DNA of 64,000 nt from an uncultured Candidatus Saccharibacteria bacterium (GTDB lineage: Bacteria > Patescibacteriota > Minisyncoccia > Phycocordibacterales > JACOZG01), in contig CAZYXJ010000001.1 of the NCBI GenBank assembly GCA_964651115.1, positions 213,077 to 277,076 on the forward strand. The letters run 5' to 3'. Positions 15,669 through 24,737 of this stretch are shown piece after piece. Both the position numbers and the translations under genes were made by a program. Within the stretch, counting starts at the first letter, position 1. Each line of letters begins with the position of its first letter. The notes below the pieces were generated by a model. It did not search any database, had not been told where the DNA came from, and saw only the letters and a program-made list of their open reading frames with translations.

Positions 15669-16109
15669 TTAATGAAGTAGGGCCTTAAGCGCGGCTAGTG
15701 ACTTGGGCCACAGATCCTCAAACATGGGAGCATATTCGTCCGGGACGTCAATCAGCTCCACCACCAGCTCCGTACCGTCGCCGTGCTCGCGAAAAGTATA
15801 ATTTTCGTAAGCGACGTGGCCATCGGGCCAGGGCTTTTCCTCCCCCGCTATCACCTCGCCGTAATGCTCAATCGAGATATATTCGGGCGGCCGACTTTCT
15901 TTAATCCGCGAGAGCATCCCGCCCTCCACGCCCGTCTCAGGATGAGGGCCCAAAAACAACATTTTGCTACCCTCGCTCCAATCACCGCGGTAATACGACC
16001 CCTCGCAAAACACTTTGGTCCACTGACGATAGGTGGCATCCTCGAGCATTGTCTGCCAAACCTTTTCCCGTGGCGCCTCAATCTCAATCGAATATTTTAA
16101 ATTTTTCAT
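15669..16109 (-). CDS. SRPBCC/AHSA1-family protein
   Basis: IEIEAPREKVWQTMLEDATYRQW is a typical START/AHSA1-like N-terminus. Confidence 0.8.
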   Translation of the reverse strand: MKNLKYSIEIEAPREKVWQTMLEDATYRQWTKVFCEGSYYRGDWSEGSKMLFLGPHPETGVEGGMLSRIKESRPPEYISIEHYGEVIAGEEKPWPDGHVAYENYTFREHGDGTELVVELIDVPDEYAPMFEDLWPKSLAALKALLH

Positions 16110-16130
16110 ATATTTAAGTTACGGATAATC

Positions 16131-16439
16131 TCACTTTTTCTCCCAGCGATCTTTATCTCGACTATTCAACTTAGCCATCACCCGATCAAAGCCGCGATCC
16201 ATATCGAGGCCCAGAGAATTAGATAAACAGGTTAAAGTGAAGATAACATCAGCAACCTCTTCCTCAATATCCTGGACATCCTCAGTATCTTTTTTCTTTT
16301 TAGGACCAAAACGGTGATTTATTTCCCGAGCCAACTCCCCAATCTCTTCCGTCAAACGGGCCATTATTTCTAGGGGTTTAAAATAACCGATCTTATATTG
16401 TTGCACCCACCCCTCCACCTCTTGTTGGATTCTTTTCAT
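16131..16439 (-). CDS. MazG-type nucleotide pyrophosphohydrolase
   Basis: LTEEIGELAREIN...EEEVADVIFTLTCLSNSLGLD EExxE/D metal-binding pattern. Confidence 0.8.
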   Translation of the reverse strand: MKRIQQEVEGWVQQYKIGYFKPLEIMARLTEEIGELAREINHRFGPKKKKDTEDVQDIEEEVADVIFTLTCLSNSLGLDMDRGFDRVMAKLNSRDKDRWEKK

Positions 16440-16446
16440 ACGGCCA

Positions 16447-16890
16447 TTATTCCATATATTCTATTTCCAACCCAAGCCGCAGGGCCTGATCATGCTCCCA
16501 GCGTGCACCGACCGAAGACTGCCAATCAGGGAGAAAATACAACTTATGAACCAATTTAGACTCAAATATTGGCAAGTAAAAATCGATTAACAATAAGTCA
16601 TCGTAATGCTCAAACTCGCGTCGACTCTTAATGCGTTGCATCGGTACTTCAAAAGGAACTTGATCAAAAATCTCGATCCCTCTTTGTTGCAAACTAGCGA
16701 TCGTCACTTCGAATCGCTTTAAATTTTTCTCCACCGAACCAGCGCCACCGGTCGAAATCGGACCGCACACCTGGCCAATGGGTGGGGGCATTTTCCGCAA
16801 CACTTGTTCAGCAACAATAAAAAGATCCCGATAAGTCTCCGCTCGGTCTAAGCTGTCATAATGTTCTTGATCCCAATACTTAAGTGACAT
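16447..16890 (-). CDS. Nucleoside 2-deoxyribosyltransferase-like (DUF4406-like) protein
   Basis: VCGPISTGG...LPDWQSSVGARWEHDQALRLGLEI resembles the LPGWexSxGAxxE signature. Pattern-level call only. Confidence 0.5.
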   Translation of the reverse strand: MSLKYWDQEHYDSLDRAETYRDLFIVAEQVLRKMPPPIGQVCGPISTGGAGSVEKNLKRFEVTIASLQQRGIEIFDQVPFEVPMQRIKSRREFEHYDDLLLIDFYLPIFESKLVHKLYFLPDWQSSVGARWEHDQALRLGLEIEYME

Positions 16891-16903
16891 AAAATTGTAA
16901 ATT

Positions 16904-17305
16904 TTACCTTATTTTCTTAACGACGGTGCCGTAAAAAATTGATGATCTGGTCCTGGAACCACCCGACTCAAAACCCACGAAAAGGCTGGGGTTTTTTATA
17001 ACCTTGTAATAATCTCCTCTGAAATAAAAAGTTTCTTTTAAATTGAATCTTTCAGCATTATAAATCTCTTCAAAAACATAAACTCCCCCTCCACGAGATA
17101 ATGGCTCACCCTCAAGCACCGCCACCTCATCACTCGATTGATACATTTTTTGAGAGTCAAAAAACTCTATATCGCCAAAAGGAATACGATTCTTTACTTC
17201 AGCTAAAAACGTTTTCTTTATATTAACGTCAAATGCCCAACCCAAAGCAAGAATACCAACCGCAATAAAAAACGAAAATTTATGCCTCAAGATAAAATTA
17301 ATCAC
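16904..17305 (-). CDS. Membrane-anchored hypothetical protein (third gene of the TA-like operon)
   Basis: N-terminal TM segment FSFFIAVGILALGWAF. 4-nt ATGA overlap with the upstream ORF. Confidence 0.55.
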   Translation of the reverse strand: MINFILRHKFSFFIAVGILALGWAFDVNIKKTFLAEVKNRIPFGDIEFFDSQKMYQSSDEVAVLEGEPLSRGGGVYVFEEIYNAERFNLKETFYFRGDYYKVIKNPSLFVGFESGGSRTRSSIFYGTVVKKIR

Positions 17306-17697
17306 AAAAAAGATCGATAATCGGGATAATTGGCCTTAATAATGGATCTCCATGCAGCCGTTTCATTCGTGCTGCCCAAATCACCCTTGGTATAAACTAA
17401 CAGAACGTGTACAGTGGCATTGCTTTTTTTGATAGCAATAATACACCTGTTACCCGAAGCGTGGCGCGACTTACCAGGTCCAGCAATCCGAAATTCCGTT
17501 TTACAAATCTTGACGTCGCCAGCATCACAAATTATCTCCACACGACTATTAACACCGATCAGTGATTCTATACGTTTAAATTGCTCCGCAATAGCATTCC
17601 ATGTAACATCCCAAGCATTTTTATACTTCTTCTTAAATTTTGAGATGTAGTGTCGGTCGGCAAATTTTTCGACAATAACCGCATAACTAGTAGACAT
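17302..17697 (-). CDS. Candidate toxin, RelE/ParE-fold-like
   Basis: 131 aa. C-terminal pattern CKTEFRIAGPGKSRHASGNRCIIAIKKSNATVHVLLVYTKGD resembles RelE/ParE beta-sheet cores. 11-nt overlap with the upstream HTH-DUF4065 gene. Confidence 0.5.
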   Translation of the reverse strand: MSTSYAVIVEKFADRHYISKFKKKYKNAWDVTWNAIAEQFKRIESLIGVNSRVEIICDAGDVKICKTEFRIAGPGKSRHASGNRCIIAIKKSNATVHVLLVYTKGDLGSTNETAAWRSIIKANYPDYRSFL

Positions 17698-18370
17698 GGT
17701 CCGGATTTTCCTGTGTGATTAGTTCGTAAGGAATAGCCTCGTCCGGCGCACACAGCTTGTACGGAAGCTGTTCATGAGTAAAATCAACAATTTCCTTAGT
17801 TCTTTTATCTTTCCATTTTGTGGAAATCTTTTTCATAAGTTCAACCTCTTCGCCCTGCAGAAGATCAAGCTTTTGACGGAGGGCTCCTGCACCAATTGAC
17901 ACGAGCATTGCGTCACCCTTGCGGTCTATTGTGATCTTCCCCTCATCTTCAAGTTCGTCAATCGCACGGAAATACGGATCGGGTACCGGACCGTAGGCAC
18001 GACGTAAGTACTGCATTCCGCTCATGCTTTCTAATTTTTCGTAATACCAAGCAAAATCGGCAAGGTAGAGAAGCTTTGCGAGTTTTGTTTTTGGCACCCG
18101 CCCATCAGTTGATGCAGGAAATTTAAGATACGCAATAATCATCTGCTTGTATTTTTCATACTGTGGAGCTGTTACTTTTGAAAGTTCTTCGATTGAAATA
18201 CCATACAATTCGCATAGTTTTTCTGCTTCCCGTAACGTCATTTCGCGTATTCCACGCTCTACGGCCATATAGGATTGGCGCGAGAGTCCAAGTTTTTCGG
18301 CTACTACTAACTGCGAAATACCCCTCTTTGTTCTAAGGGCTTTTATAAATGATGCGTATTTGGTGCTCAT
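17687..18370 (-). CDS. HTH-XRE plus DUF4065 (Panacea) domain antitoxin-like protein
   Basis: Start moved to ATG 18370. XRE HTH (LRTKRGISQLVVAEKLGLSRQSYMAVERG), then KTKLAKLLYLADFAWYYEK...YLRRAYGPVP, a DUF4065/SocA-like pattern. Confidence 0.78.
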   Translation of the reverse strand: MSTKYASFIKALRTKRGISQLVVAEKLGLSRQSYMAVERGIREMTLREAEKLCELYGISIEELSKVTAPQYEKYKQMIIAYLKFPASTDGRVPKTKLAKLLYLADFAWYYEKLESMSGMQYLRRAYGPVPDPYFRAIDELEDEGKITIDRKGDAMLVSIGAGALRQKLDLLQGEEVELMKKISTKWKDKRTKEIVDFTHEQLPYKLCAPDEAIPYELITQENPDHVY

Positions 18371-18387
18371 GTCTAAAGTGTACATAA

Positions 18388-18412
18388 CCTGTGTATAAAA
18401 TACAAACACAGG
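18388..18412. promoter_or_regulatory. Inverted repeat upstream of the HTH-Panacea operon (candidate operator)
   Basis: CCTGTGT-N11-ACACAGG, 18-42 nt upstream of the ATG at 18370. Confidence 0.3.
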
Positions 18413-18499
18413 GTGTTGATATTCTATACACGCTCGTGGTAAAATTGTTGCACTGGACTAGTCGAACCAGCAGAAAAATAAACTTAATACCTTAGTACT

Positions 18500-18622
18500 A
18501 TGGCAAAAACCTCAAAAAAGGCCGGTAGGGCTGCATCAAAAGTGTTGCGGAGCAAAAGTGCAGGAAAAAATCCAAAGATAGCTGCCGCTTCTGCATTGCG
18601 ACAGCGTCAAGACCGCCAATAG
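18500..18622 (+). CDS. Small basic ORF, 40 aa (doubtful)
   Basis: My own translation: MAKTSKKAGRAASKVLRSKSAGKNPKIAAASALRQRQDRQ*. Below the track cutoff and no clear Shine-Dalgarno. Confidence 0.2.
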   Translation: MAKTSKKAGRAASKVLRSKSAGKNPKIAAASALRQRQDRQ

Positions 18623-18727
18623 AGGCTAACTTGAGCAAAAGTTACTGGCTTATAGAGAGCTCGCGGAGAAAGAGAATTGATTGGGTTACAGCCATTCACT
18701 AACAGCCCTAGAAAAGTATGCCTCGCT

Positions 18728-18760
18728 CACACAAAACCGCACAATGTGCGGTTTTGTGTT
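18728..18760 (-). terminator. Terminator hairpin after the RM gene
   Basis: CACACAAAACCGCAC-AAT-GTGCGGTTTTGTGT. The stem contains A/T runs, so it could act in both directions. Confidence 0.6.
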
Positions 18761-21700
18761 ATAAGGCCACCTCATCAATTTCTCTCATAATTTTGTCTGT
18801 TTCCACCAAAGCAACAATAATTTTTTGATAGTGTTCAATATCGCCATTTGAAAGCATGCGACCCTTGCGGTCTTTCAACCACTTCTGCGCGGGTTGGTAG
18901 CCGCCGATGTAGAACGACCATGCGATCTCGGGGACGTTGCCAAAATACTGCGTTGCGTTGATGTATACACTGTCGCCCTTGCGAGTGATTTTCTCTACCT
19001 TGTTCGTGCCGACCTCGGGGTAGGTAGTGATGGGGGTGCGTACCGCCGCTGATTCGAGCAGGTGAAGTTCCCGGAGTTGTTTACCGAGCGCCGCGAGTGC
19101 GGCGAACTGCGCCTTATCTTTCGGATATGGGACGCGGGGGAAATCTATTCTAAGAAACTCCTTGTACTTCTCACGGTAGTTTGGTGAGTGCAGAACGGCG
19201 TAGACATAATCAAAGATATCCTCGGGCGTTGGTTCTTTTCCGACCAAAGAGGCAATCTGCTTCACAATGTCGCGGTTGAGGTTCGGTACACGAGTGCCGT
19301 CCCCCGCGTGTAAATAAAGTGGGACGTTCATGGCGTTTGTGGCTGTCGTTCCAGACAAGAATATTGCTTCGGAAATGGTATTTGTAACAAAGACGTGGTT
19401 GTAGTCAGCATCGCGGACGCTTTTTGTGACCAAAAGTCCGAGATTAGATCCTTGTAGGTAATGCTTCATTATTTTGTCTACCGGACGCCAAACTAGCGAT
19501 GAGTGGTAAAAGATCAGACGATCATCAAAAGGACGATATGCGATCTCTTTTACAAAGTTCGATAATTCATTTTCTTTCCGCAAAGCATCTCGAGCTTTCA
19601 ACGCATCCCAACCTTTTTTATCGCTGATACCAACCTCGGCGCACAATGCCCTTTGTGTGTTTGTTGTTGAGTTACGGAAACGTTCCGCGTTGGAAGCAAG
19701 ATTCTGGGTGTCACTGCCAATAACAAAGGCGTCTCTGGCTGTAACCACCCCATTCCCGTTTTCAATAAAGAGGTCTTTGATAGAAATGTTTTTTATGTAT
19801 TGAGCTTTTGTTTTCTCATCTCGCACTGTCCATTCGTAGTTTTGCGACTTGGGAGCGAGCTCGTGCCAGTGCATGGAGCCAAGTTCCATTTCATTGAGAC
19901 ACTCGAACTTCGTTCGCTTCGTTCCGAAACAGTCGGCGCGATAGACGTTGGCGAGAGAGCCCGAGCGTTTTCCTTTGCGGCGTACGCCAATAAGAATCGA
20001 GACGCCCTGTTTGATAGCGAACACGTTTTCATCTTTGCCACCATCGGGGGCTTTTTCTTTCTTGTTGGAATTTCCGTGGAGGTCGAGAACGTAAATCTCG
20101 CTGAACGTCTCCATGAGGTGATAGCGCATACCCCGAAACGTTGGGTTGTCGATGTACCCGTGTGCAGTAATCATTCCGACAATACCCTCACCGGTTTGTT
20201 CGATAAGACTCTCGGCGAAGCGAATGAACTTCACGTAGTCATCGTTTATCCATTTGCTGTTGCGTTCTTTGAGCTTTTGCGAAGTACCCGGCTCAACCTT
20301 GTAGACATCGTGCCCTGTGTACTCCTTGTTACTTGACTCTCCTGCGTAGGGGGGATTTCCTATCACAATCATTATCGGTGTGTCGTTCTTGATGCGAGCA
20401 GCGGCACGACTCTCCTCACTAATACTCTGTGCGAGACCGAGCATGCCAAAGAGCGAATCGTCAGGGCGCTCCGCTTTCTCAAGAGAGTTCGTGAGATACA
20501 CGCCGATACGGTCTTTGAAATCTTTTGCACCGGACTCGCGGAGGGTGGCGGCAAGTTTGAGGTGAGCGATGGTATAGGGCGCCATCATAAGCTCGAAGCC
20601 GTGGAGACGAGGGAGGAGGTCTTCATTCACGTAGCCACTGAATCGTCCTTCCTGTCCGGCGAATGTGCGACGGATGAGACGTATCGTCTCGTTAAGGAAG
20701 GTGCCAGTGCCAGTTGCTGGATCGAGCACCTGCACTTTGTGAATGGTGTCCTTCACTTTCTTGCCCTGCACCATTCGCGTGATATCTATCTTCTTCGTGT
20801 CGGCGAGACCTTGGGGTAGGTCGAAGTCGCGTTTGAGAATGGCATCAACCGAGCGCACGATGAAGTGCACGACGGCGGGTGGTGTGTAATACGCACCAAG
20901 CTTCTTTCGCTCTACTGGGTCGTATGCTTTGAGAAAGTCCTCGTAAAAGTGGATGACAGGGTCGGGCGCCGCCTGTTCTGCGCCCCATAGGTCTTGCTTG
21001 TAAATCTGTTGCATGAGTGCGCGGACATTAGCGTTGCCGAACACTTTGCAGAGGTCGTCGACGATTGGCTTCAATCGGTCGTCAAAGTCAGCACCGGCGA
21101 TGTGGTCGAAGAAGCGACGCAGGAGAGGGTTTGAGTGCGGGATAAGCTCACGCGCTTCTGCTCGTGTGAAGTCTTTGGGGGATTCATCGTGATACCTCGC
21201 GACGAAAAGACCGTACACGAGCGTCTGCGCATACATGTCGGTGAAGTCGTCGAGCGAAAGATCGTGGATGAGTTGCGATTTGAACGCCTCGTAGATGTCG
21301 AGGAGAGGTTTATTCTTGGGACTATCCGTTTTAAGAAAGCGCAGCAGATTGGCGCGGAGGCGCTTGCCGTTCTCTCCCATGATTTCGGCGAGGCGGTTCG
21401 CACGGCGCACCGGCTCCGCCGCATCTTCGAGGAAGGCTCGAATTGTGGTTTCTAAAAGGGCATATGAGTTTCCGTCCGGTGAAAGTGTCTCAAGGTCACT
21501 TATTACGATGGGGTCGCAATACGCTCCGCCATGCTTGTAGAAGCGAAACTCGAGATAATTCGTAAGGATGAGGTTAGCATAGCCAAAGTAACGTTTGAGT
21601 TGTTCCCCCTTGACGATATCGTCGAGGTTCTCCCCGAGACGCTTGGTCTCGACATAGCCGACTGGAAATCCGCCCTTGATGAGGGCAAAGTCGGGGGCAC

Positions 21701-21863
21701 CAAACTCGATCTTTCCCGGCTCATTCACCGCGTCCACGTCGGGAAGCATTGCCTCAAGTAGCACCTTAAGTGCGGGGCGGTGCTGGTGTTCTAGATCTTT
21801 GGTACCCACGCTGGAAGTCGCACTACGAGTTCGTGCAATTGCAGAAAGGTATGTTTCTAGCAT
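18759..21863 (-). CDS. Fused Type IIG-like restriction-modification enzyme (PD-ExK nuclease + gamma-class N6-adenine methyltransferase + specificity region)
   Basis: Start moved to ATG 21863 (1034 aa). N-terminal PDFALIKGGFPVGYVETK (PD...ExK). Motif I VLDPATGTGTFL. Motif IV VIGNPPYAGES. C-terminal YAVLHSPNYREKYKEFLRIDFPRVPYP (YeeA / Type ISP C-terminal-like). Confidence 0.8.
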   Translation of the reverse strand: MLETYLSAIARTRSATSSVGTKDLEHQHRPALKVLLEAMLPDVDAVNEPGKIEFGAPDFALIKGGFPVGYVETKRLGENLDDIVKGEQLKRYFGYANLILTNYLEFRFYKHGGAYCDPIVISDLETLSPDGNSYALLETTIRAFLEDAAEPVRRANRLAEIMGENGKRLRANLLRFLKTDSPKNKPLLDIYEAFKSQLIHDLSLDDFTDMYAQTLVYGLFVARYHDESPKDFTRAEARELIPHSNPLLRRFFDHIAGADFDDRLKPIVDDLCKVFGNANVRALMQQIYKQDLWGAEQAAPDPVIHFYEDFLKAYDPVERKKLGAYYTPPAVVHFIVRSVDAILKRDFDLPQGLADTKKIDITRMVQGKKVKDTIHKVQVLDPATGTGTFLNETIRLIRRTFAGQEGRFSGYVNEDLLPRLHGFELMMAPYTIAHLKLAATLRESGAKDFKDRIGVYLTNSLEKAERPDDSLFGMLGLAQSISEESRAAARIKNDTPIMIVIGNPPYAGESSNKEYTGHDVYKVEPGTSQKLKERNSKWINDDYVKFIRFAESLIEQTGEGIVGMITAHGYIDNPTFRGMRYHLMETFSEIYVLDLHGNSNKKEKAPDGGKDENVFAIKQGVSILIGVRRKGKRSGSLANVYRADCFGTKRTKFECLNEMELGSMHWHELAPKSQNYEWTVRDEKTKAQYIKNISIKDLFIENGNGVVTARDAFVIGSDTQNLASNAERFRNSTTNTQRALCAEVGISDKKGWDALKARDALRKENELSNFVKEIAYRPFDDRLIFYHSSLVWRPVDKIMKHYLQGSNLGLLVTKSVRDADYNHVFVTNTISEAIFLSGTTATNAMNVPLYLHAGDGTRVPNLNRDIVKQIASLVGKEPTPEDIFDYVYAVLHSPNYREKYKEFLRIDFPRVPYPKDKAQFAALAALGKQLRELHLLESAAVRTPITTYPEVGTNKVEKITRKGDSVYINATQYFGNVPEIAWSFYIGGYQPAQKWLKDRKGRMLSNGDIEHYQKIIVALVETDKIMREIDEVAL

Positions 21864-21950
21864 GTTTTGAATTCCTGTATAAATAGCCTTCGGCCATATT
21901 ACCACCAAGCACAGGAGTTCACCACTCCAACGGCCCGGCTCTCTAAGTAA

Positions 21951-21982
21951 CAGAAAAGACCCTTGCTTAAAAGCAAGGGTCT
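21951..21982 (-). terminator. Rho-independent terminator after the PEP-CTERM gene
   Basis: Minus strand AGACCCTTGC-TTTTAA-GCAAGGGTCT followed by TTTTCTGTT. Confidence 0.6.
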
Positions 21983-22008
21983 TGATTAGCGATTCGGGGG
22001 GGTAAGAA

Positions 22009-22584
22009 CTACGTTTTACGCCGGCGGCGAGCGCACAGTGGCGCCGCCAACCCAAGGAGCACGAGGCTCGTCGGCTCCGGCAAGCCGGAGCCCCGAAGAA
22101 AGATGAGGTTGGTACGGAACTCGTCCGCACCAAACTCTAACCAATTCCCCACGGCGCTGGGGTCTGAACTCCAACTGAGCCGCTCCAACTGCAAGGCATA
22201 ATAGCCCGACAGTCGAGGCTCTAGCATCGCACCAACATGGAAGCGCCTCTTCTCCCCCTCCGCTATTAAGTAAAAGTCTTGCCCATCACTGGGGGAAGAA
22301 CTTGTACTCAAAAACGCCATCATCGGCGATCCTACCCCCGGGGTGGCGAAGTTGAAGAACGAATACTGGAGCAGCGGTGATGGCCTGGCGGACAGCCGTG
22401 GAACATAGACATCCCCGGAGATGGCGATGATATCGAACCACATCCGGAAGTAACCGATGCTCCCCTCCTCGAAGTCTTTCTGCCAGACTTCCGCCTGACT
22501 GGAAACCAACGTCGCCACCGGCGACGCTACCGCAACGGAACACGTCACCAACGCCGCCGCCACAAAGGAAAACAGACGGTTCAT
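22009..22584 (-). CDS. Secreted protein with C-terminal PEP-CTERM-like sorting signal
   Basis: Signal peptide MNRLFSFVAAALVTCSVAVA. C-terminus GSGLPEPTSLVLLGLAAPLCARRRRKT, i.e. PEP, then a TM segment, then a basic tail. Confidence 0.7.
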   Translation of the reverse strand: MNRLFSFVAAALVTCSVAVASPVATLVSSQAEVWQKDFEEGSIGYFRMWFDIIAISGDVYVPRLSARPSPLLQYSFFNFATPGVGSPMMAFLSTSSSPSDGQDFYLIAEGEKRRFHVGAMLEPRLSGYYALQLERLSWSSDPSAVGNWLEFGADEFRTNLIFLRGSGLPEPTSLVLLGLAAPLCARRRRKT

Positions 22585-22691
22585 TTTTAGCCCCTTTTTC
22601 TTTTTAAGGTCCTAGGAAAGTTGGCCCAACGCCAACTGACTGCTCAACTATATACTATATTTTCTATATTGTCAATAGGTAGGGATTCGAG

Positions 22692-23507
22692 CTATCGTTG
22701 AGCGTGTTTTAGGATCCATTTGGTGTGTTCGTTTTTGGACTTCGACCAAGCGGCAATGAGCTTTTTAGCTTCTTTTGGGTTTACCTTGACCCAGTCTCGG
22801 ACATGATTGGCGACTGATTTTTTGACAAATTTTATCTCGTCTTCTTTGAGTAATTCGAGGATTTCAAAAATTGGCTTTGGGTTCTCGTTCCACACATCAA
22901 GCTTCGGTGCCCAGGGTAGTTTGGGGCGAAGTCCTTCGGTTGCAAGTCGGCGGAGGTGAAAATTTTTGCTTTTTGCCCATTTGTTACATATCGCAAGAGT
23001 TTTCTCAGGATACTTACGAGCATACGGACGAATAGCATATTCTCCCGTGTTTCTTTTGGTAATTTCTTCGATAGCTTTTATTGACAGCGCAAAGTGATCA
23101 AGCCCGTATTTCTCGACAAATTTTCCAACCGGCATGAGCCAATAAAAATTAGTAAACATACCAGTTTCTTCTTTGTTTTCTGGCCCGAGTATTTGCAAAA
23201 GGATATCAAGTGCTTCCGGATATTTTTCTGGTAGATACTGCTTGAGTAGATCCGCAATGATTCCGATCCGTTGCGTGTAGCTCTTACCAACAACTGCTCG
23301 TTTAGTATCGCGAACAAAACCTTTCGTATCAAAATTTTTATATACGGCCGATATTTTCTCCGCAAGCATTACTGCCAAATCTTCTCCGAACACCTCCGTG
23401 ATTGAGATTCTGTCAGTCATTGCGGTGGATTCTGAAATTAGTTCGAACGGAATTCGCTCCTCGCCGCGCACACTAACAATTTTAAGTTTTTCTTTAGCGG
23501 AATACAA
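22692..23507 (-). CDS. DNA alkylation repair protein (HEAT-like repeat, AlkC/AlkD family-like)
   Basis: Pattern NTGEYAIRPY...FHLRRLATEGLRPKLPWAPKL...KFVKKSVANHVRD. Alternative start ATG 23420 (MTDRISI). Confidence 0.75.
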   Translation of the reverse strand: MYSAKEKLKIVSVRGEERIPFELISESTAMTDRISITEVFGEDLAVMLAEKISAVYKNFDTKGFVRDTKRAVVGKSYTQRIGIIADLLKQYLPEKYPEALDILLQILGPENKEETGMFTNFYWLMPVGKFVEKYGLDHFALSIKAIEEITKRNTGEYAIRPYARKYPEKTLAICNKWAKSKNFHLRRLATEGLRPKLPWAPKLDVWNENPKPIFEILELLKEDEIKFVKKSVANHVRDWVKVNPKEAKKLIAAWSKSKNEHTKWILKHAQR

Positions 23508-23600
23508 ATTCGAGCGTGCGAAGCACGCACAATTGTTCTTTTAAAAGAAAAGTGCCCAGACCGAAGTCCAGGCACTTGCACCATCAGTTGCTGTGATGTT

Positions 23601-24446
23601 TCAACGGGAGGATGGAACGAGCCGAAGCAACCGCACCGAGACGATCTCGTAGTTGAGAACACCGAGGAGCGCTCCTGCGATTGCGCCGATGATGGCACTG
23701 CCAAATGTGTAGCCGATGGCGGCACCGATTGTGGCATCGACGAAGCAGATCGTCCGGCGTTGTGAGTGAACGTACACGAACACACCAGCGACGAACTGCG
23801 CGAGGGCGCTCGCCACGCGGCGCACACCATTGATTGTCGCGGGCACTGCACGCGCAATCGCTGACGGTGTACGAACGGCGACCCACTTCAGTCCGCGAAT
23901 GACCGCAAGGGTTGCGCCGATTGGATTGCAGTGGAGAATAAACATCCACCCTATCTCGGCGATATCGCGGAGTCCCTGTTCGCGGTCTGCCGCATCTTTC
24001 GCGCCACTCGAAATGCTAACTGTCATGAACCACCCCAGAAGTGCGCCCATGACCGAAAAGACGAGCATTGACCAGAGCGTACCGACGAGAACCGGCACGG
24101 GATTGTCGCTGAAGTAAGCGAACGCGACTCCTCCAACGCCGACGATTGACGAGTACATCATGACGACACCTCCCGACATCACCACGAGTGTTTTCCACCC
24201 GTGCAAATCGGGACGCCACGCGATCGTGCGGCGGTAGGAATGGACGACACCGGCGCAGAAGTGCCGAAAGTCGATCGCGACATAAGCGGTGATACCGCCG
24301 ACCAAAGCGCCGAAAGCGCACAGATACGAGCCGTACTCGAATCGTGTCGAGATCTCGAGTGCGGTCAGGGTGCCGACCAAAGCGCCGAAAGCGCACGCAA
24401 GGGCGATTGAAAGCCAGTCACGTGTCATGTTCATTTTTACCTCCAC
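23601..24446 (-). CDS. Polytopic membrane protein, hypothetical
   Basis: At least 6 hydrophobic segments. GC-rich. Contains an in-frame 25-bp perfect direct repeat (24297-24321 and 24372-24396) that encodes CAFGALVG twice. Confidence 0.6.
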   Translation of the reverse strand: MEVKMNMTRDWLSIALACAFGALVGTLTALEISTRFEYGSYLCAFGALVGGITAYVAIDFRHFCAGVVHSYRRTIAWRPDLHGWKTLVVMSGGVVMMYSSIVGVGGVAFAYFSDNPVPVLVGTLWSMLVFSVMGALLGWFMTVSISSGAKDAADREQGLRDIAEIGWMFILHCNPIGATLAVIRGLKWVAVRTPSAIARAVPATINGVRRVASALAQFVAGVFVYVHSQRRTICFVDATIGAAIGYTFGSAIIGAIAGALLGVLNYEIVSVRLLRLVPSSR

Positions 24447-24647
24447 TTTTCAAGGTTCAATTTATCTAAGCAACGTGCCTAGATTTCGGAGCAATCATAG
24501 CATTATTTACCTAATACGTCAAGAAGCAGCGTTTAGCTGCTTCTTGGAAAAATTCAGAATGAAAAAATTTCTTTTTCGCCAAAAATCCCATACAAATTAG
24601 CCGCCGAGCGCAGGGAGGCGGGCAACTCGCATTTACAATTTCCTTTC

Positions 24648-24737
<90 letters not shown>

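Follow-up and report, generated by a model that had tools for sequence, protein, structure and literature searches.

We found that the window (the whole 64,000-nucleotide stretch of DNA analyzed here) probably encodes a type II toxin-antitoxin module of two genes, belonging to the PanA/PanT class and approximately 1.1 kb long (∼18431 to 17302, minus strand; Table 1), with a RelE/HigB2-like toxin. The two genes are panA, a candidate HTH-Panacea antitoxin gene, and a gene for a 131-aa candidate toxin that overlaps it. Relative to an earlier note on this DNA, which had described a three-gene operon, the gene model is corrected: panA starts at ATG 18370, and the conserved system comprises two genes rather than three.

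Table 1. Features of the panA locus (positions in the window; minus-strand genes run from the higher coordinate to the lower)
Feature	Position	Strand	Description
Structured RNA	18615-18769	plus	∼100 nt, five helices; covariation
Cassette cargo here	18500..18622	plus	40-aa basic peptide ORF (MAKTSKKAGRAASKVLRSKSAGKNPKIAAASALRQRQDRQ)
5' hairpin of cassette transcript	18453..18470	plus	CTGG-ACTAGTCGAA-CCAG
Divergent promoter	18416..18445	plus	TTGATA, 18-nt spacer, TAAAAT, TG upstream; for small-ORF/RNA cassette
Operator O1 (candidate)	18413..18431		GTGT-N11-ACAC; centre 22 bp upstream of O2
Operator O2 (candidate)	18388..18412		CCTGTGT-N11-ACACAGG; core GTGT-N11-ACAC 18409-18391; brackets panA -35
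panA promoter	18377..18405	minus	-35 TTGTAT 18405-18400, 17-nt spacer, -10 TACACT 18382-18377
panA	18370..17687	minus	Antitoxin/autorepressor candidate; 227 aa counted from ATG
Candidate toxin gene (PanT)	17697..17302	minus	131 aa; RelE/HigB2-like, putative ribosome-dependent mRNA endonuclease
133-aa orphan ORF	17305..16904	minus	N-terminal signal-anchor-like segment; start codon GTG
MazG gene	16131-16439		Two genes farther downstream
Type IIG restriction-methyltransferase gene	18759..22133		Neighbor; PADLOC and Pfam

The sequence agreed with the open reading frame coordinates of the earlier note and with its 11-nt overlap between panA and the 131-aa ORF (17687 to 17697). The 4-nt overlap that it had placed between the toxin gene and a third ORF also stood; its reading as ATGA did not, since the junction is GTGA and the third ORF thus starts with GTG. 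Further in-frame starts at ATG 18385 and GTG 18409 would give a longer PanA, and the start common to most homologues is ATG 18370 (224 to 229 aa in 70 of 79). The GC content was 0.37 to 0.45 over positions 16000 to 19000 versus ∼0.55 in the flanks, and GC3 was 0.34 to 0.45 from panA to MazG versus 0.59 to 0.65 for the genes of GAPDH, AHSA1, and the restriction-modification (RM) enzyme; the toxin-antitoxin module here occupies a low-GC3 insert. This dip, together with the assignment of the neighboring gene to Type IIG (PADLOC REase_MTase_IIG, E 5e-274; Pfam Type_ISP_C and N6_Mtase), bears out the earlier placement of the locus beside an RM enzyme in an accessory island. A GC content of 55% and a PEP-CTERM-like ORF were also noted.

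The first gene had been called an HTH-Panacea (DUF4065) gene, and profile HMM searches agreed. Pfam HTH_3 matched PanA residues 9 to 63 (E 1.5e-12), and SocA_Panacea (PF13274) matched residues 97 to 204 above its Pfam cut-off (E 2.6e-11; 44.8 bits against 25.7), with the alignment spanning model positions 1 to 112 of 113. The protein consists of an XRE helix-turn-helix (residues 3 to 64), a linker helix (69 to 83), the Panacea/SocA domain (∼94 to 204), and a conserved C-terminal tail (205 to 227), and its AlphaFold model was confident (pLDDT 85.5). A Foldseek search with this model matched the HTH alone, and no solved Panacea structure was found in the PDB. PanA homologues are annotated at source as [quoted passage not shown] and bear the same domain in precomputed annotation; identity among close homologues was 71 to 94%. 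The HTH was most similar to RM controller proteins (PADLOC Control_protein, E 6.5e-8; 31 to 36% identity to C.BclI and C.AhdI over ∼62 residues).

The 131-aa protein is modeled with the RelE/ParE-superfamily fold: an N-terminal strand, two helices, an antiparallel β-sheet, and a C-terminal helix. Its best structural and sequence matches were ribosome-dependent RNases, namely, aRelE, HigB2, HigB, YoeB, and YafQ. HigB2 was the best PDB sequence match of a deep profile of the family (A5), in the register GxR...LLxxYxK, and this match was weak (E 0.013, 18.7 bits, 40 residues); a shallower profile (A1) returned only noise against PDB sequences. Thus, the earlier RelE/ParE call stood for the fold and for the β-core motif, which aligns with HigB2, and did not stand against curated sequence models: RelE/ParE models (Pfam ParE_toxin, RelE PF06296, YoeB, YafQ, HigB, and others) gave no match to the window protein, nor was there a significant match in Pfam, NCBIfam, PADLOC, or PHROGs. 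Only 1 of 88 diverse family members matched PF06296, below threshold (E 0.014), and one homologue is annotated "Addiction module toxin RelE."

Mutagenesis places the HigB2 active site at R51, R64, Y82, and K84 (PMC5416850). The HMM alignment, a weak sequence alignment rather than a superposition, pairs toxin R84, Y102, and K104 with HigB2 R64, Y82, and K84, respectively. Counted over the 88 members, which extend down to 25% identity, R84 was kept in 87, Y102 in 86, and K104 in 87. The equivalent of HigB2 R51, R70, was Lys or Arg in just 43 of the 88, and K66 on the same strand was kept in 87. In both proteins, a loop that is basic and prone to disorder precedes the Arg strand (SRHASGN versus KGKRGGS). 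Relative to HigB2, the toxin has extra near-invariant residues (K23, K66, S77, E112, and T113). Toxin identity was 60 to 84% among the 120 matches listed and fell to 49% in genome loci from varied CPR lineages; such conservation, unusually high for a toxin, could reflect another constraint.

The known toxins nearest in fold differ from this one in several respects. Identity to HigB2 (Vibrio cholerae HigBA2; PF06296; PDB 5mje and 5ja8), aRelE (1wmi), YoeB, and YafQ was 8 to 13%, and the protein is 131 aa long compared to the 85 to 110 aa of typical toxins, reaching no Pfam gathering score. The antitoxin gene comes first here, whereas in higBA2 the toxin gene does. PanA is an HTH-Panacea protein with an N-terminal HTH, in contrast to HigA2, which has an N-terminal neutralizing segment and a C-terminal HTH.

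Upstream of panA, an inverted repeat (arms CCTGTGT at 18412 to 18406 and ACACAGG at 18394 to 18388, 11-nt spacer) had been put forward as a candidate operator, a proposal strengthened here by its conserved position and by compensatory changes in its arms. It is one of two palindromes around the promoter. Across homologous loci, (A/G)TGT-N11-ACA(C/T) was found at -37 to -41 in 40 of 78 and at -59 to -64 in 50 of 78, with both sites present in 32; at least one site was present in 65 of 78 loci versus 0.44 expected from shuffles. Perfect 7-bp arms were maintained by compensatory changes in L010 (CCTATGT/ACATAGG) and L080 (GCTATGT/ACATAGC). A TATACT-like -10 box (at least 5 of 6 positions) was present in 52 of 78 loci, nearly always ending 6 to 9 nt before the ATG, and a TTGACT-like -35 box was located 16 to 19 nt upstream of the -10 in homologous loci. 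The window's own panA -35 is weak and fails a consensus scan. With just 6 nt between the end of the panA -10 box and the ATG, the panA mRNA would be leaderless or nearly so, from a transcription start that we infer.

In this arrangement, PanA resembles the RM controller proteins C.BclI, C.AhdI, and C.Esp1396I: the HTH is similar and, as with C-boxes, two TGT/ACA palindromes overlap the promoter. Unlike C proteins, PanA has its HTH fused to a Panacea domain, and its gene precedes a toxin gene rather than an RM gene. The neighboring RM gene, located upstream, has a distant start of its own, and there was no sign of control by PanA.

These features lead us to propose the following mechanism. Conservation and covariation of the palindromes suggest that PanA dimers bind the two operators via the N-terminal XRE HTH, and because the operators bracket the -35 box, such binding would repress panA transcription. 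From the putative leaderless or near-leaderless message, the toxin would be translated by coupling across the observed 11-nt overlap. Given the predicted RelE/ParE fold, the proximity to HigB2, and the retention of the catalytic Arg, Tyr, and Lys positions, the toxin would most likely enter the ribosomal A site, cut translating mRNA, and arrest growth. PanA would neutralize it through direct binding, for which the Panacea domain, the linker helix, and the C-terminal tail are candidate parts.

We asked how the pair is distributed. All 82 loci had a panA homologue immediately upstream of the toxin gene, and nearly all of these loci are labeled CPR/Patescibacteria. Of 79 loci, 69 had a gene overlap of 11 or 14 nt. 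DNA homology between loci was bounded at ∼18423 and ∼17304, with the downstream edge at the toxin stop codon (17304 to 17306). Flanks differed from locus to locus and were unrelated; the gene pair is kept as a unit, in line with the earlier note, and its surroundings are not. The toxin family forms ∼200 clusters at 50% identity and is carried by ∼129 species representatives. Most likely, horizontal transfer moves the whole module between CPR/Patescibacteria genomes.

The idea that this is a novel PanA-toxin combination was overstated: HTH-PanA has already been reported in 343 sequences, and RelE/ParE-type partners are described, since PanA partner toxins include ParE, MqsR, and a YoeB/ParE/RelE-like cluster, T28 (Kurata et al. 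2022, PMC8832971). The toxin family itself matches no Pfam, NCBIfam, or PADLOC model. As in described PanA/PanT systems (PMC8832971, PMC10440598), PF13274 is combined with an N-terminal HTH, the antitoxin gene is first in a two-gene operon, the partner has a classic fold, and the spread is mobile and patchy. Unlike them, the toxin family has members labeled almost wholly as CPR/Patescibacteria, and both partners are unusually conserved. In the portion of the RefSeq-based PanAT data set consulted (PMC8832971), neither the name Zambryskibacteria nor the three Zambryskibacteria toxin accessions gave a match.

A possible, if not favored, reading is that the pair is mainly an anti-phage abortive-infection switch in which Panacea senses infection, rather than an addiction or stability module; it overlaps our two-gene toxin-antitoxin reading and differs in biological role only. 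Consistent with this, a Type IIG RM gene adjoins the pair in the window as well as in L027, the nearest relative, the pair sits within an insert of foreign composition and elsewhere in variable, island-like settings, including beside tRNA 3' ends, and a sensory role for Panacea and links of toxin-antitoxin networks to defense have been proposed (Ernits et al. 2023, PMC10440598). However, the toxin matched no PADLOC defense model, and the RM query matched only 5 of 82 loci; one of these matches was marginal, and the other four loci belong to the same strain or to close relatives. Moreover, the motif pattern of the cassette described below had no match in viral contigs, in a search that used the motif and not the toxin-antitoxin genes.

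Divergent from panA, we observed a small cassette (Table 1). Its promoter was the best σ70-like match between 15500 and 18900 (10 of 12 positions), and the -35 TTGATA (18416 to 18421) is overlapped by O1; other cassette-bearing loci have an equivalent TTGACA-N17-TAnAAT at the same place. In the 5' hairpin, the loop (C/A)UUAGUCGAA is kept and the stems covary (UCGG/CCGA, UUGG/CCAA, GUCAG/CUGAC, and others). Homologues of the 40-aa peptide (50 to 72% identity) are divergent upstream of panA in L052, L020, L023, L026, and L037, and the same position elsewhere holds DUF1508, HNH, GIY-YIG-like, Cys-rich, and other small ORFs. In every cassette locus, the structured RNA begins at the stop codon of the cargo, and an intrinsic terminator closes it (hairpin 18729 to 18759, then a T-run).

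The existence of this RNA motif is well supported by covariation among the aligned sequences. Alignment A6 contains 29 distinct sequences and 18 base pairs, with 98.8% of cells paired versus 34 to 44% when partners were slid. Nine pairs showed compensatory changes, and 51 cells had double changes compared to 18.8 in shuffles (0 of 500). The G-U pairs favor the plus strand, and covariance model R1 scored the window RNA at 156.6 bits. A search of positions 16000 to 19500 with Rfam 15 (4227 covariance models) gave no match at E ≤ 1, and the only gathering-level Rfam match in the whole window was a tRNA (24651 to 24737). Several identities for the element were rejected. A tRNA was ruled out, as none was found, and a 23-aa ORF is interrupted by stop codons in other loci. 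An integron attC site was considered because the GGCTAAC start resembles the inverse core RYYYAAC; it was rejected by eye, since there is no 3' GTTRRRY core and attC sites have nothing that corresponds to the conserved 5' hairpin. SRP RNA and 6S RNA were set aside by inspection alone.

We tentatively suggest, with considerable doubt, that the toxin-antitoxin pair is one arm of a larger mobile unit whose other arm is a "plug-in" expression cassette co-regulated by PanA. The cassette in this reading comprises a promoter over O1, a conserved hairpin at the 5' end (loop CUUAGUCGAA), a small ORF that can be exchanged, the non-Rfam RNA, and a terminator. In favor of the link, in addition to the overlap of O1 with the cassette -35 and the fixed start of the RNA at the cargo stop codon, a PanA gene was divergently adjacent in 15 of 20 informative distinct loci found by the RNA motif alone, 3 of which have a different HTH-PanA and a different RelE-like toxin. 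Nevertheless, apart from the window, the RNA was present in only 8 of the 80 PanAT loci taken from genome representatives; a recognizable divergent small ORF was present in ∼17 of 72; and in five cassette loci a PanA gene would fit but is missing. The O1 half-site could also simply be an operator, and co-occurrence may reflect shared integration hot spots. We judge it unlikely that the cassette is co-regulated by PanA, whether or not the toxin takes part, and forms one larger mobile system with the pair. More speculatively, the RelE-like toxin may act on the cassette transcript or be sensed through it. RelE prefers stop codons among the A-site codons it cuts.

Returning to the toxin itself, a protein that adopts the RelE/ParE fold and has another activity, whether as a ParE-like gyrase poison or as a nontoxic co-repressor of PanA, is improbable. 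The ribosome-dependent RNases named above are its top matches, the Arg, Tyr, and Lys positions used by HigB2 in catalysis hardly vary across the family, and the basic loop is also common to the two proteins. We therefore retain ribosome-dependent mRNA cleavage as the most likely activity.

The remaining claim was that of a third component. The 133-aa ORF is probably a real gene, since shuffling of its stretch gave an open frame of 133 codons or longer only 2 times in 2000 and the ORF encodes one N-terminal hydrophobic segment (Kyte-Doolittle 19-residue maximum of 1.78, residues 11 to 29); the latter fits the earlier description of a single-pass membrane protein. However, the protein matched only itself among 5.8 billion proteins, had no significant match in Pfam, NCBIfam, PADLOC, or PHROGs, and was absent from 80 of 80 other loci (phmmer against the ORFs of ≥40 aa from all 82 loci). 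Its ORF lies just beyond the DNA homology block, which stops at the toxin stop codon. Searching more widely for a recurrent third gene, we found none above 6 of 80 loci when flanking ORFs of ≥70 aa were clustered all against all, and this largest neighbor family is translational-GTPase-like by N-terminal motif alone. DUF4406 was beside the pair in none of the 80 loci, the remaining downstream genes of the window were likewise not recurrent, and the MazG query gave just two marginal matches, both to genes ∼2.5 kb upstream of panA. Thus, the locus resembles tripartite toxin-antitoxin systems (TAC, paaR-paaA-parE, mazEF-mazG, and PanAT accessory genes) in having at least three packed co-directional genes under one promoter and differs from them in that no third gene is kept with the pair. 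The three-gene operon is therefore not upheld: because the 133-aa ORF is an orphan missing from the 80 other loci, the conserved system has two genes, and by its distribution this ORF appears to be a lineage-specific local neighbor outside the conserved module. That the 133-aa membrane protein is a coupled functional third part (effector, anchor, or sensor) is highly improbable, since, despite its 4-nt GTGA overlap with the toxin stop, the failure to find a terminator between the two genes, a low GC3 like that of panA and the toxin gene, an open frame unlikely by chance, and the accessory third genes of some PanAT clusters (Kurata et al., PMC8832971), it is missing elsewhere, has no Shine-Dalgarno motif, and gives way in other loci to a downstream neighbor that is often convergent or unrelated.

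The two-gene module adds a large, well-defined family to toxin-antitoxin biology. CPR/Patescibacteria are often said to be poor in defense and toxin-antitoxin systems, and the family extends the Panacea network to these bacteria, which RefSeq-based PanAT surveys leave largely unsampled. The module is compact, with a clearly defined promoter and operators and equally clear coupling and candidate catalytic residues, making it easily testable in a surrogate host. The structured RNA closes an exchangeable small-ORF cassette usually found beside PanA-type modules. It represents a candidate for a new RNA family and, with its cassette, a possible new gene-cassette organization in ultrasmall bacteria, a by-product that may outweigh the toxin-antitoxin finding.

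All three minus-strand ORFs that the earlier note had proposed as an operon were present as described, except that the overlap of the second and third, given there as ATGA, reads GTGA, so that the 133-aa ORF starts with GTG. The first gene, panA, encodes the claimed combination of an HTH with DUF4065 (Panacea), matching Pfam HTH_3 (E = 1.5e-12) and SocA_Panacea (PF13274; E = 2.6e-11, exceeding the gathering score). Its upstream neighbor is a Type IIG restriction-methyltransferase gene, the restriction-modification (RM) enzyme reported beside the trio. GC content fell to 0.37 to 0.45 over 16000-19000, versus ~0.55 in the flanks; GC3 was 0.34 to 0.45 in panA, the candidate toxin gene (131-aa ORF), the 133-aa ORF, and the DUF4406 and MazG genes and 0.59 to 0.65 in nearby host-like genes. 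The stretch from panA to MazG is therefore compositionally distinct from its surroundings.

Features of the panA region and its neighborhood (window coordinates)
Feature	Position	Strand	Remarks
DUF4406 and MazG pyrophosphohydrolase genes	16131-16890	-	7-13-nt gaps after 133-aa ORF
133-aa ORF	17305..16904	-	4-nt overlap with 131-aa ORF
131-aa ORF	17697..17302	-	11-nt overlap with panA
panA	18370..17687	-	HTH-Panacea ORF
panA promoter	-35 TTGTAT 18405-18400; -10 TACACT 18382-18377	-	then 6 nt to ATG
O2 inverted repeat	CCTGTGT 18412-18406; ACACAGG 18394-18388		arms separated by N11
Cassette promoter	TTGATA 18416-18421	+	18-nt spacer, then TAAAAT; region's best promoter match
5' hairpin CTGG-ACTAGTCGAA-CCAG	18453-18470	+	conserved; stem covaries
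40-aa basic-peptide ORF MAKTSKKAGRAASKVLRSKSAGKNPKIAAASALRQRQDRQ	18500-18622	+	cassette cargo
Structured RNA (~100 nt) and terminator	18615-18769	+	covariation
Intrinsic terminator hairpin	18729-18759	+	end of cassette
RM gene, longest ORF	TTG start at 22133	-	overlaps 191-aa ORF; overlap region and later ATG within 21863-22584
tRNA gene	24651-24737	-	

The gene pair proved to be conserved as a unit. When a single genome from each species was scanned, the toxin occurred in 129 species, and a PanA homologue lay immediately upstream of it in all 80 loci retrieved and likewise in two contigs with the same sequence as the window. Of 79 loci, 54 had an 11-nt overlap of the two genes and 15 a 14-nt overlap. 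At the DNA level, the window was homologous to these loci from ~18423 to 17304-17306, the toxin stop codon; flanking genes differed between loci, the biggest recurring family being found in 6/80. Judged from sequence comparison, panA and the toxin gene form an autonomous, mobile two-gene module. At three loci (L025, L055, and L081), an apparent tRNA 3' end (...TTCGA.TC....CCA), recognized by eye ~60 to 110 nt upstream of panA, abuts the promoter region just upstream of operator O1, which suggests, as judged by eye, that the pair inserted beside tRNA genes in some genomes. The metagenome-assembled Paceibacterota genome SMAG_U8008 carries the pair twice, on different contigs (L024 and L062).

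The 133-aa ORF, with a single, N-terminal hydrophobic segment, is likely to be a genuine gene (2/2000 shuffles produced a frame open for as long). It is, however, an orphan without homologues, missing from every other locus of the pair and situated just beyond the homology block; the claimed three-gene operon is a local arrangement and not a system. The DUF4406 and MazG genes share its low GC3 (0.44 to 0.45) and showed no link to the toxin-antitoxin pair in other loci; both could be additional cargo of one foreign insert. The DUF4406 product (PHROG 355) is similar to nucleoside 2-deoxyribosyltransferases.

On the other side of panA, the RM gene probably starts at a later ATG (MLETYL...; ~21863 as calculated from where it falls in the translation). 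The 191-aa ORF terminates with a motif resembling PEP-CTERM (Pfam E = 0.003, short of the cutoff). Within 22400-24737, a second GC dip (0.41 to 0.48) surrounds a gene with a DNA_alkylation-repair domain (22692-23507). This dip and the tRNA gene could represent the distal boundary of a more extensive accessory region containing the RM gene. Upstream of the pair, a Zambryskibacteria genome (L027, 34-2874) carries a close Type IIG RM homologue (E = 2e-289), and a bin labeled Saccharibacteria (L003, 2862-3236) carries a 124-aa RM remnant; linkage of RM gene and pair is therefore common only to the nearest relatives.

We compared, by alignment, the 100-nt sequences that precede the conserved panA ATG in 78 loci. 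The alignment showed a TTGACT-like -35 box, a spacer of 16 to 19 nt, and a TATACT-like -10 box (at least 5/6 positions in 52/78 loci), which nearly always ended 6 to 9 nt 5' of the ATG. Because the window's -10 box ends 6 nt before the ATG, the panA mRNA would be leaderless, and the promoter spacing disfavors the alternative annotated starts farther upstream, 18385 and 18409. A sequence fitting (A/G)TGT-N11-ACA(C/T) was present in 65/78 loci versus 0.44 expected, at two set positions 22 bp apart, O1 (-59 to -64) and O2 (-37 to -41). The inverted repeat reported upstream of the trio is indeed there, occupying the conserved O2 position and bracketing the -35 box as a candidate operator; in two other loci, L010 and L080, the 7-bp arms match perfectly and show compensatory changes. 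The closest relatives of the PanA HTH are RM controller proteins, which likewise bind paired palindromes, and we infer that PanA binds O1 and O2. PanA is conserved over its full length, including the C-terminal tail. Comparison of its confident structure model (pLDDT 85.5) with the PDB found no solved Panacea structure.

The 131-aa candidate toxin had no match in Pfam, NCBIfam, PADLOC, or PHROGs, and its family fell outside the curated RelE/ParE sequence models. We found 371 close homologues, the sources named among the matches listed being almost all CPR/Patescibacteria; one UniRef entry was already named "Addiction module toxin RelE." An exhaustive profile search extended the family to 203 clusters at 50% identity. 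With profile A5, built from 88 diverse members (identities down to 25%), the best PDB sequence match was Vibrio cholerae HigB2 (E = 0.013), in line with the RelE/ParE beta-core that had been read in this ORF. The alignment places "...S.K.SGNRcI......LLvYsK" opposite "KGKRGGSRIIYY....LLTIYGK." Mutagenesis assigned R51, R64, Y82, and K84 to the HigB2 active site (Hadzi et al., PMC5416850). R84, Y102, and K104 of the candidate toxin align with active-site residues and are kept in 87, 86, and 87 of the 88 members, as is K66, on the strand preceding R84, in 87; a basic residue at the position matching R51 is seen in only 43. Given this alignment and the conservation of the aligned residues, the protein is predicted to have a RelE/ParE-superfamily fold, the toxin's structure model and the HigB2 sequence link being of moderate strength. 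Its putative activity, by reasoned inference, is ribosome-dependent mRNA cleavage.

Divergent from panA and located between it and the RM gene, a plus-strand cassette begins at a promoter whose -35 box overlaps O1. Constant across cassettes are a 5' hairpin (loop ACTAGTCGAA in the window, CUUAGUCGAA in most loci) and a 3' structured RNA; between them lies an exchangeable small ORF, whose family varies by locus (DUF1508, HNH, GIY-YIG-like, Cys-rich 70-mer, basic peptides, and others). The window's 40-aa peptide had no Pfam match; homologues with 50 to 72% identity are encoded divergently upstream of panA in L052, L020, L023, L026, and L037. The RNA starts at or just after the small-ORF stop codon in every locus. 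It was found in 8/80 genome-scan loci (L013, L027, L037, L046, L049, L058, L071, and L072) and, through a motif pattern, in 27 metagenome loci (L083-L109), a sample biased toward sequences differing little from one exact pattern. When 29 distinct copies were aligned, five helices with 18 pairs emerged, 98.8% paired versus 34 to 44% with partners slid. Compensatory changes affected nine pairs, and double-change cells numbered 51 versus 18.8 in shuffles (0/500 shuffles reached 51). Plus-strand orientation of the RNA is indicated by its G-U pairs and by the variable terminator. There was no match in Rfam 15, and the RNA motif and cassette organization look undescribed. Among 20 informative distinct metagenome loci, 15 had a PanA gene divergently adjacent (in 3 of them, another HTH-PanA, paired with another RelE-like toxin) and five had no PanA; the link between cassette and pair is statistical only. 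A distant, second subfamily of HTH-PanA (26 to 27% identity, 259 to 264 aa) adjoins the cassette RNA in L086 (3786-4908), L088 (527-1658), and L106 (1119-2250), the coordinates being given with the RNA motif of each locus on the plus strand. Its partner is a different, unannotated RelE-like toxin (motif GRGVQSGIRVIYAYY...YFKGE).

Panacea is a hyperpromiscuous antitoxin domain, with N-terminal HTH domains in 343 PanAs and partner toxins that include MqsR-like, Fic/Doc, toxSAS, PemK, and ParE proteins (Kurata et al. 2022); one cluster of that dataset, T28, is weakly similar to YoeB/ParE/RelE. Either Panacea or elements appended to it can carry out neutralization, and a sensory role for Panacea has been suggested (Ernits et al. 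2023). Compared with these systems, the window pair would work in the same way and qualifies as a PanAT with a RelE-superfamily toxin. None of three Zambryskibacteria toxin accessions occurred in the examined part of the RefSeq-based PanAT dataset. The suggestion of an uncharacterized PanA-toxin combination holds only in part, since HTH-PanAs and RelE/ParE-like partners had already been reported; what is new here is a toxin family without a curated model and its distribution in the CPR.
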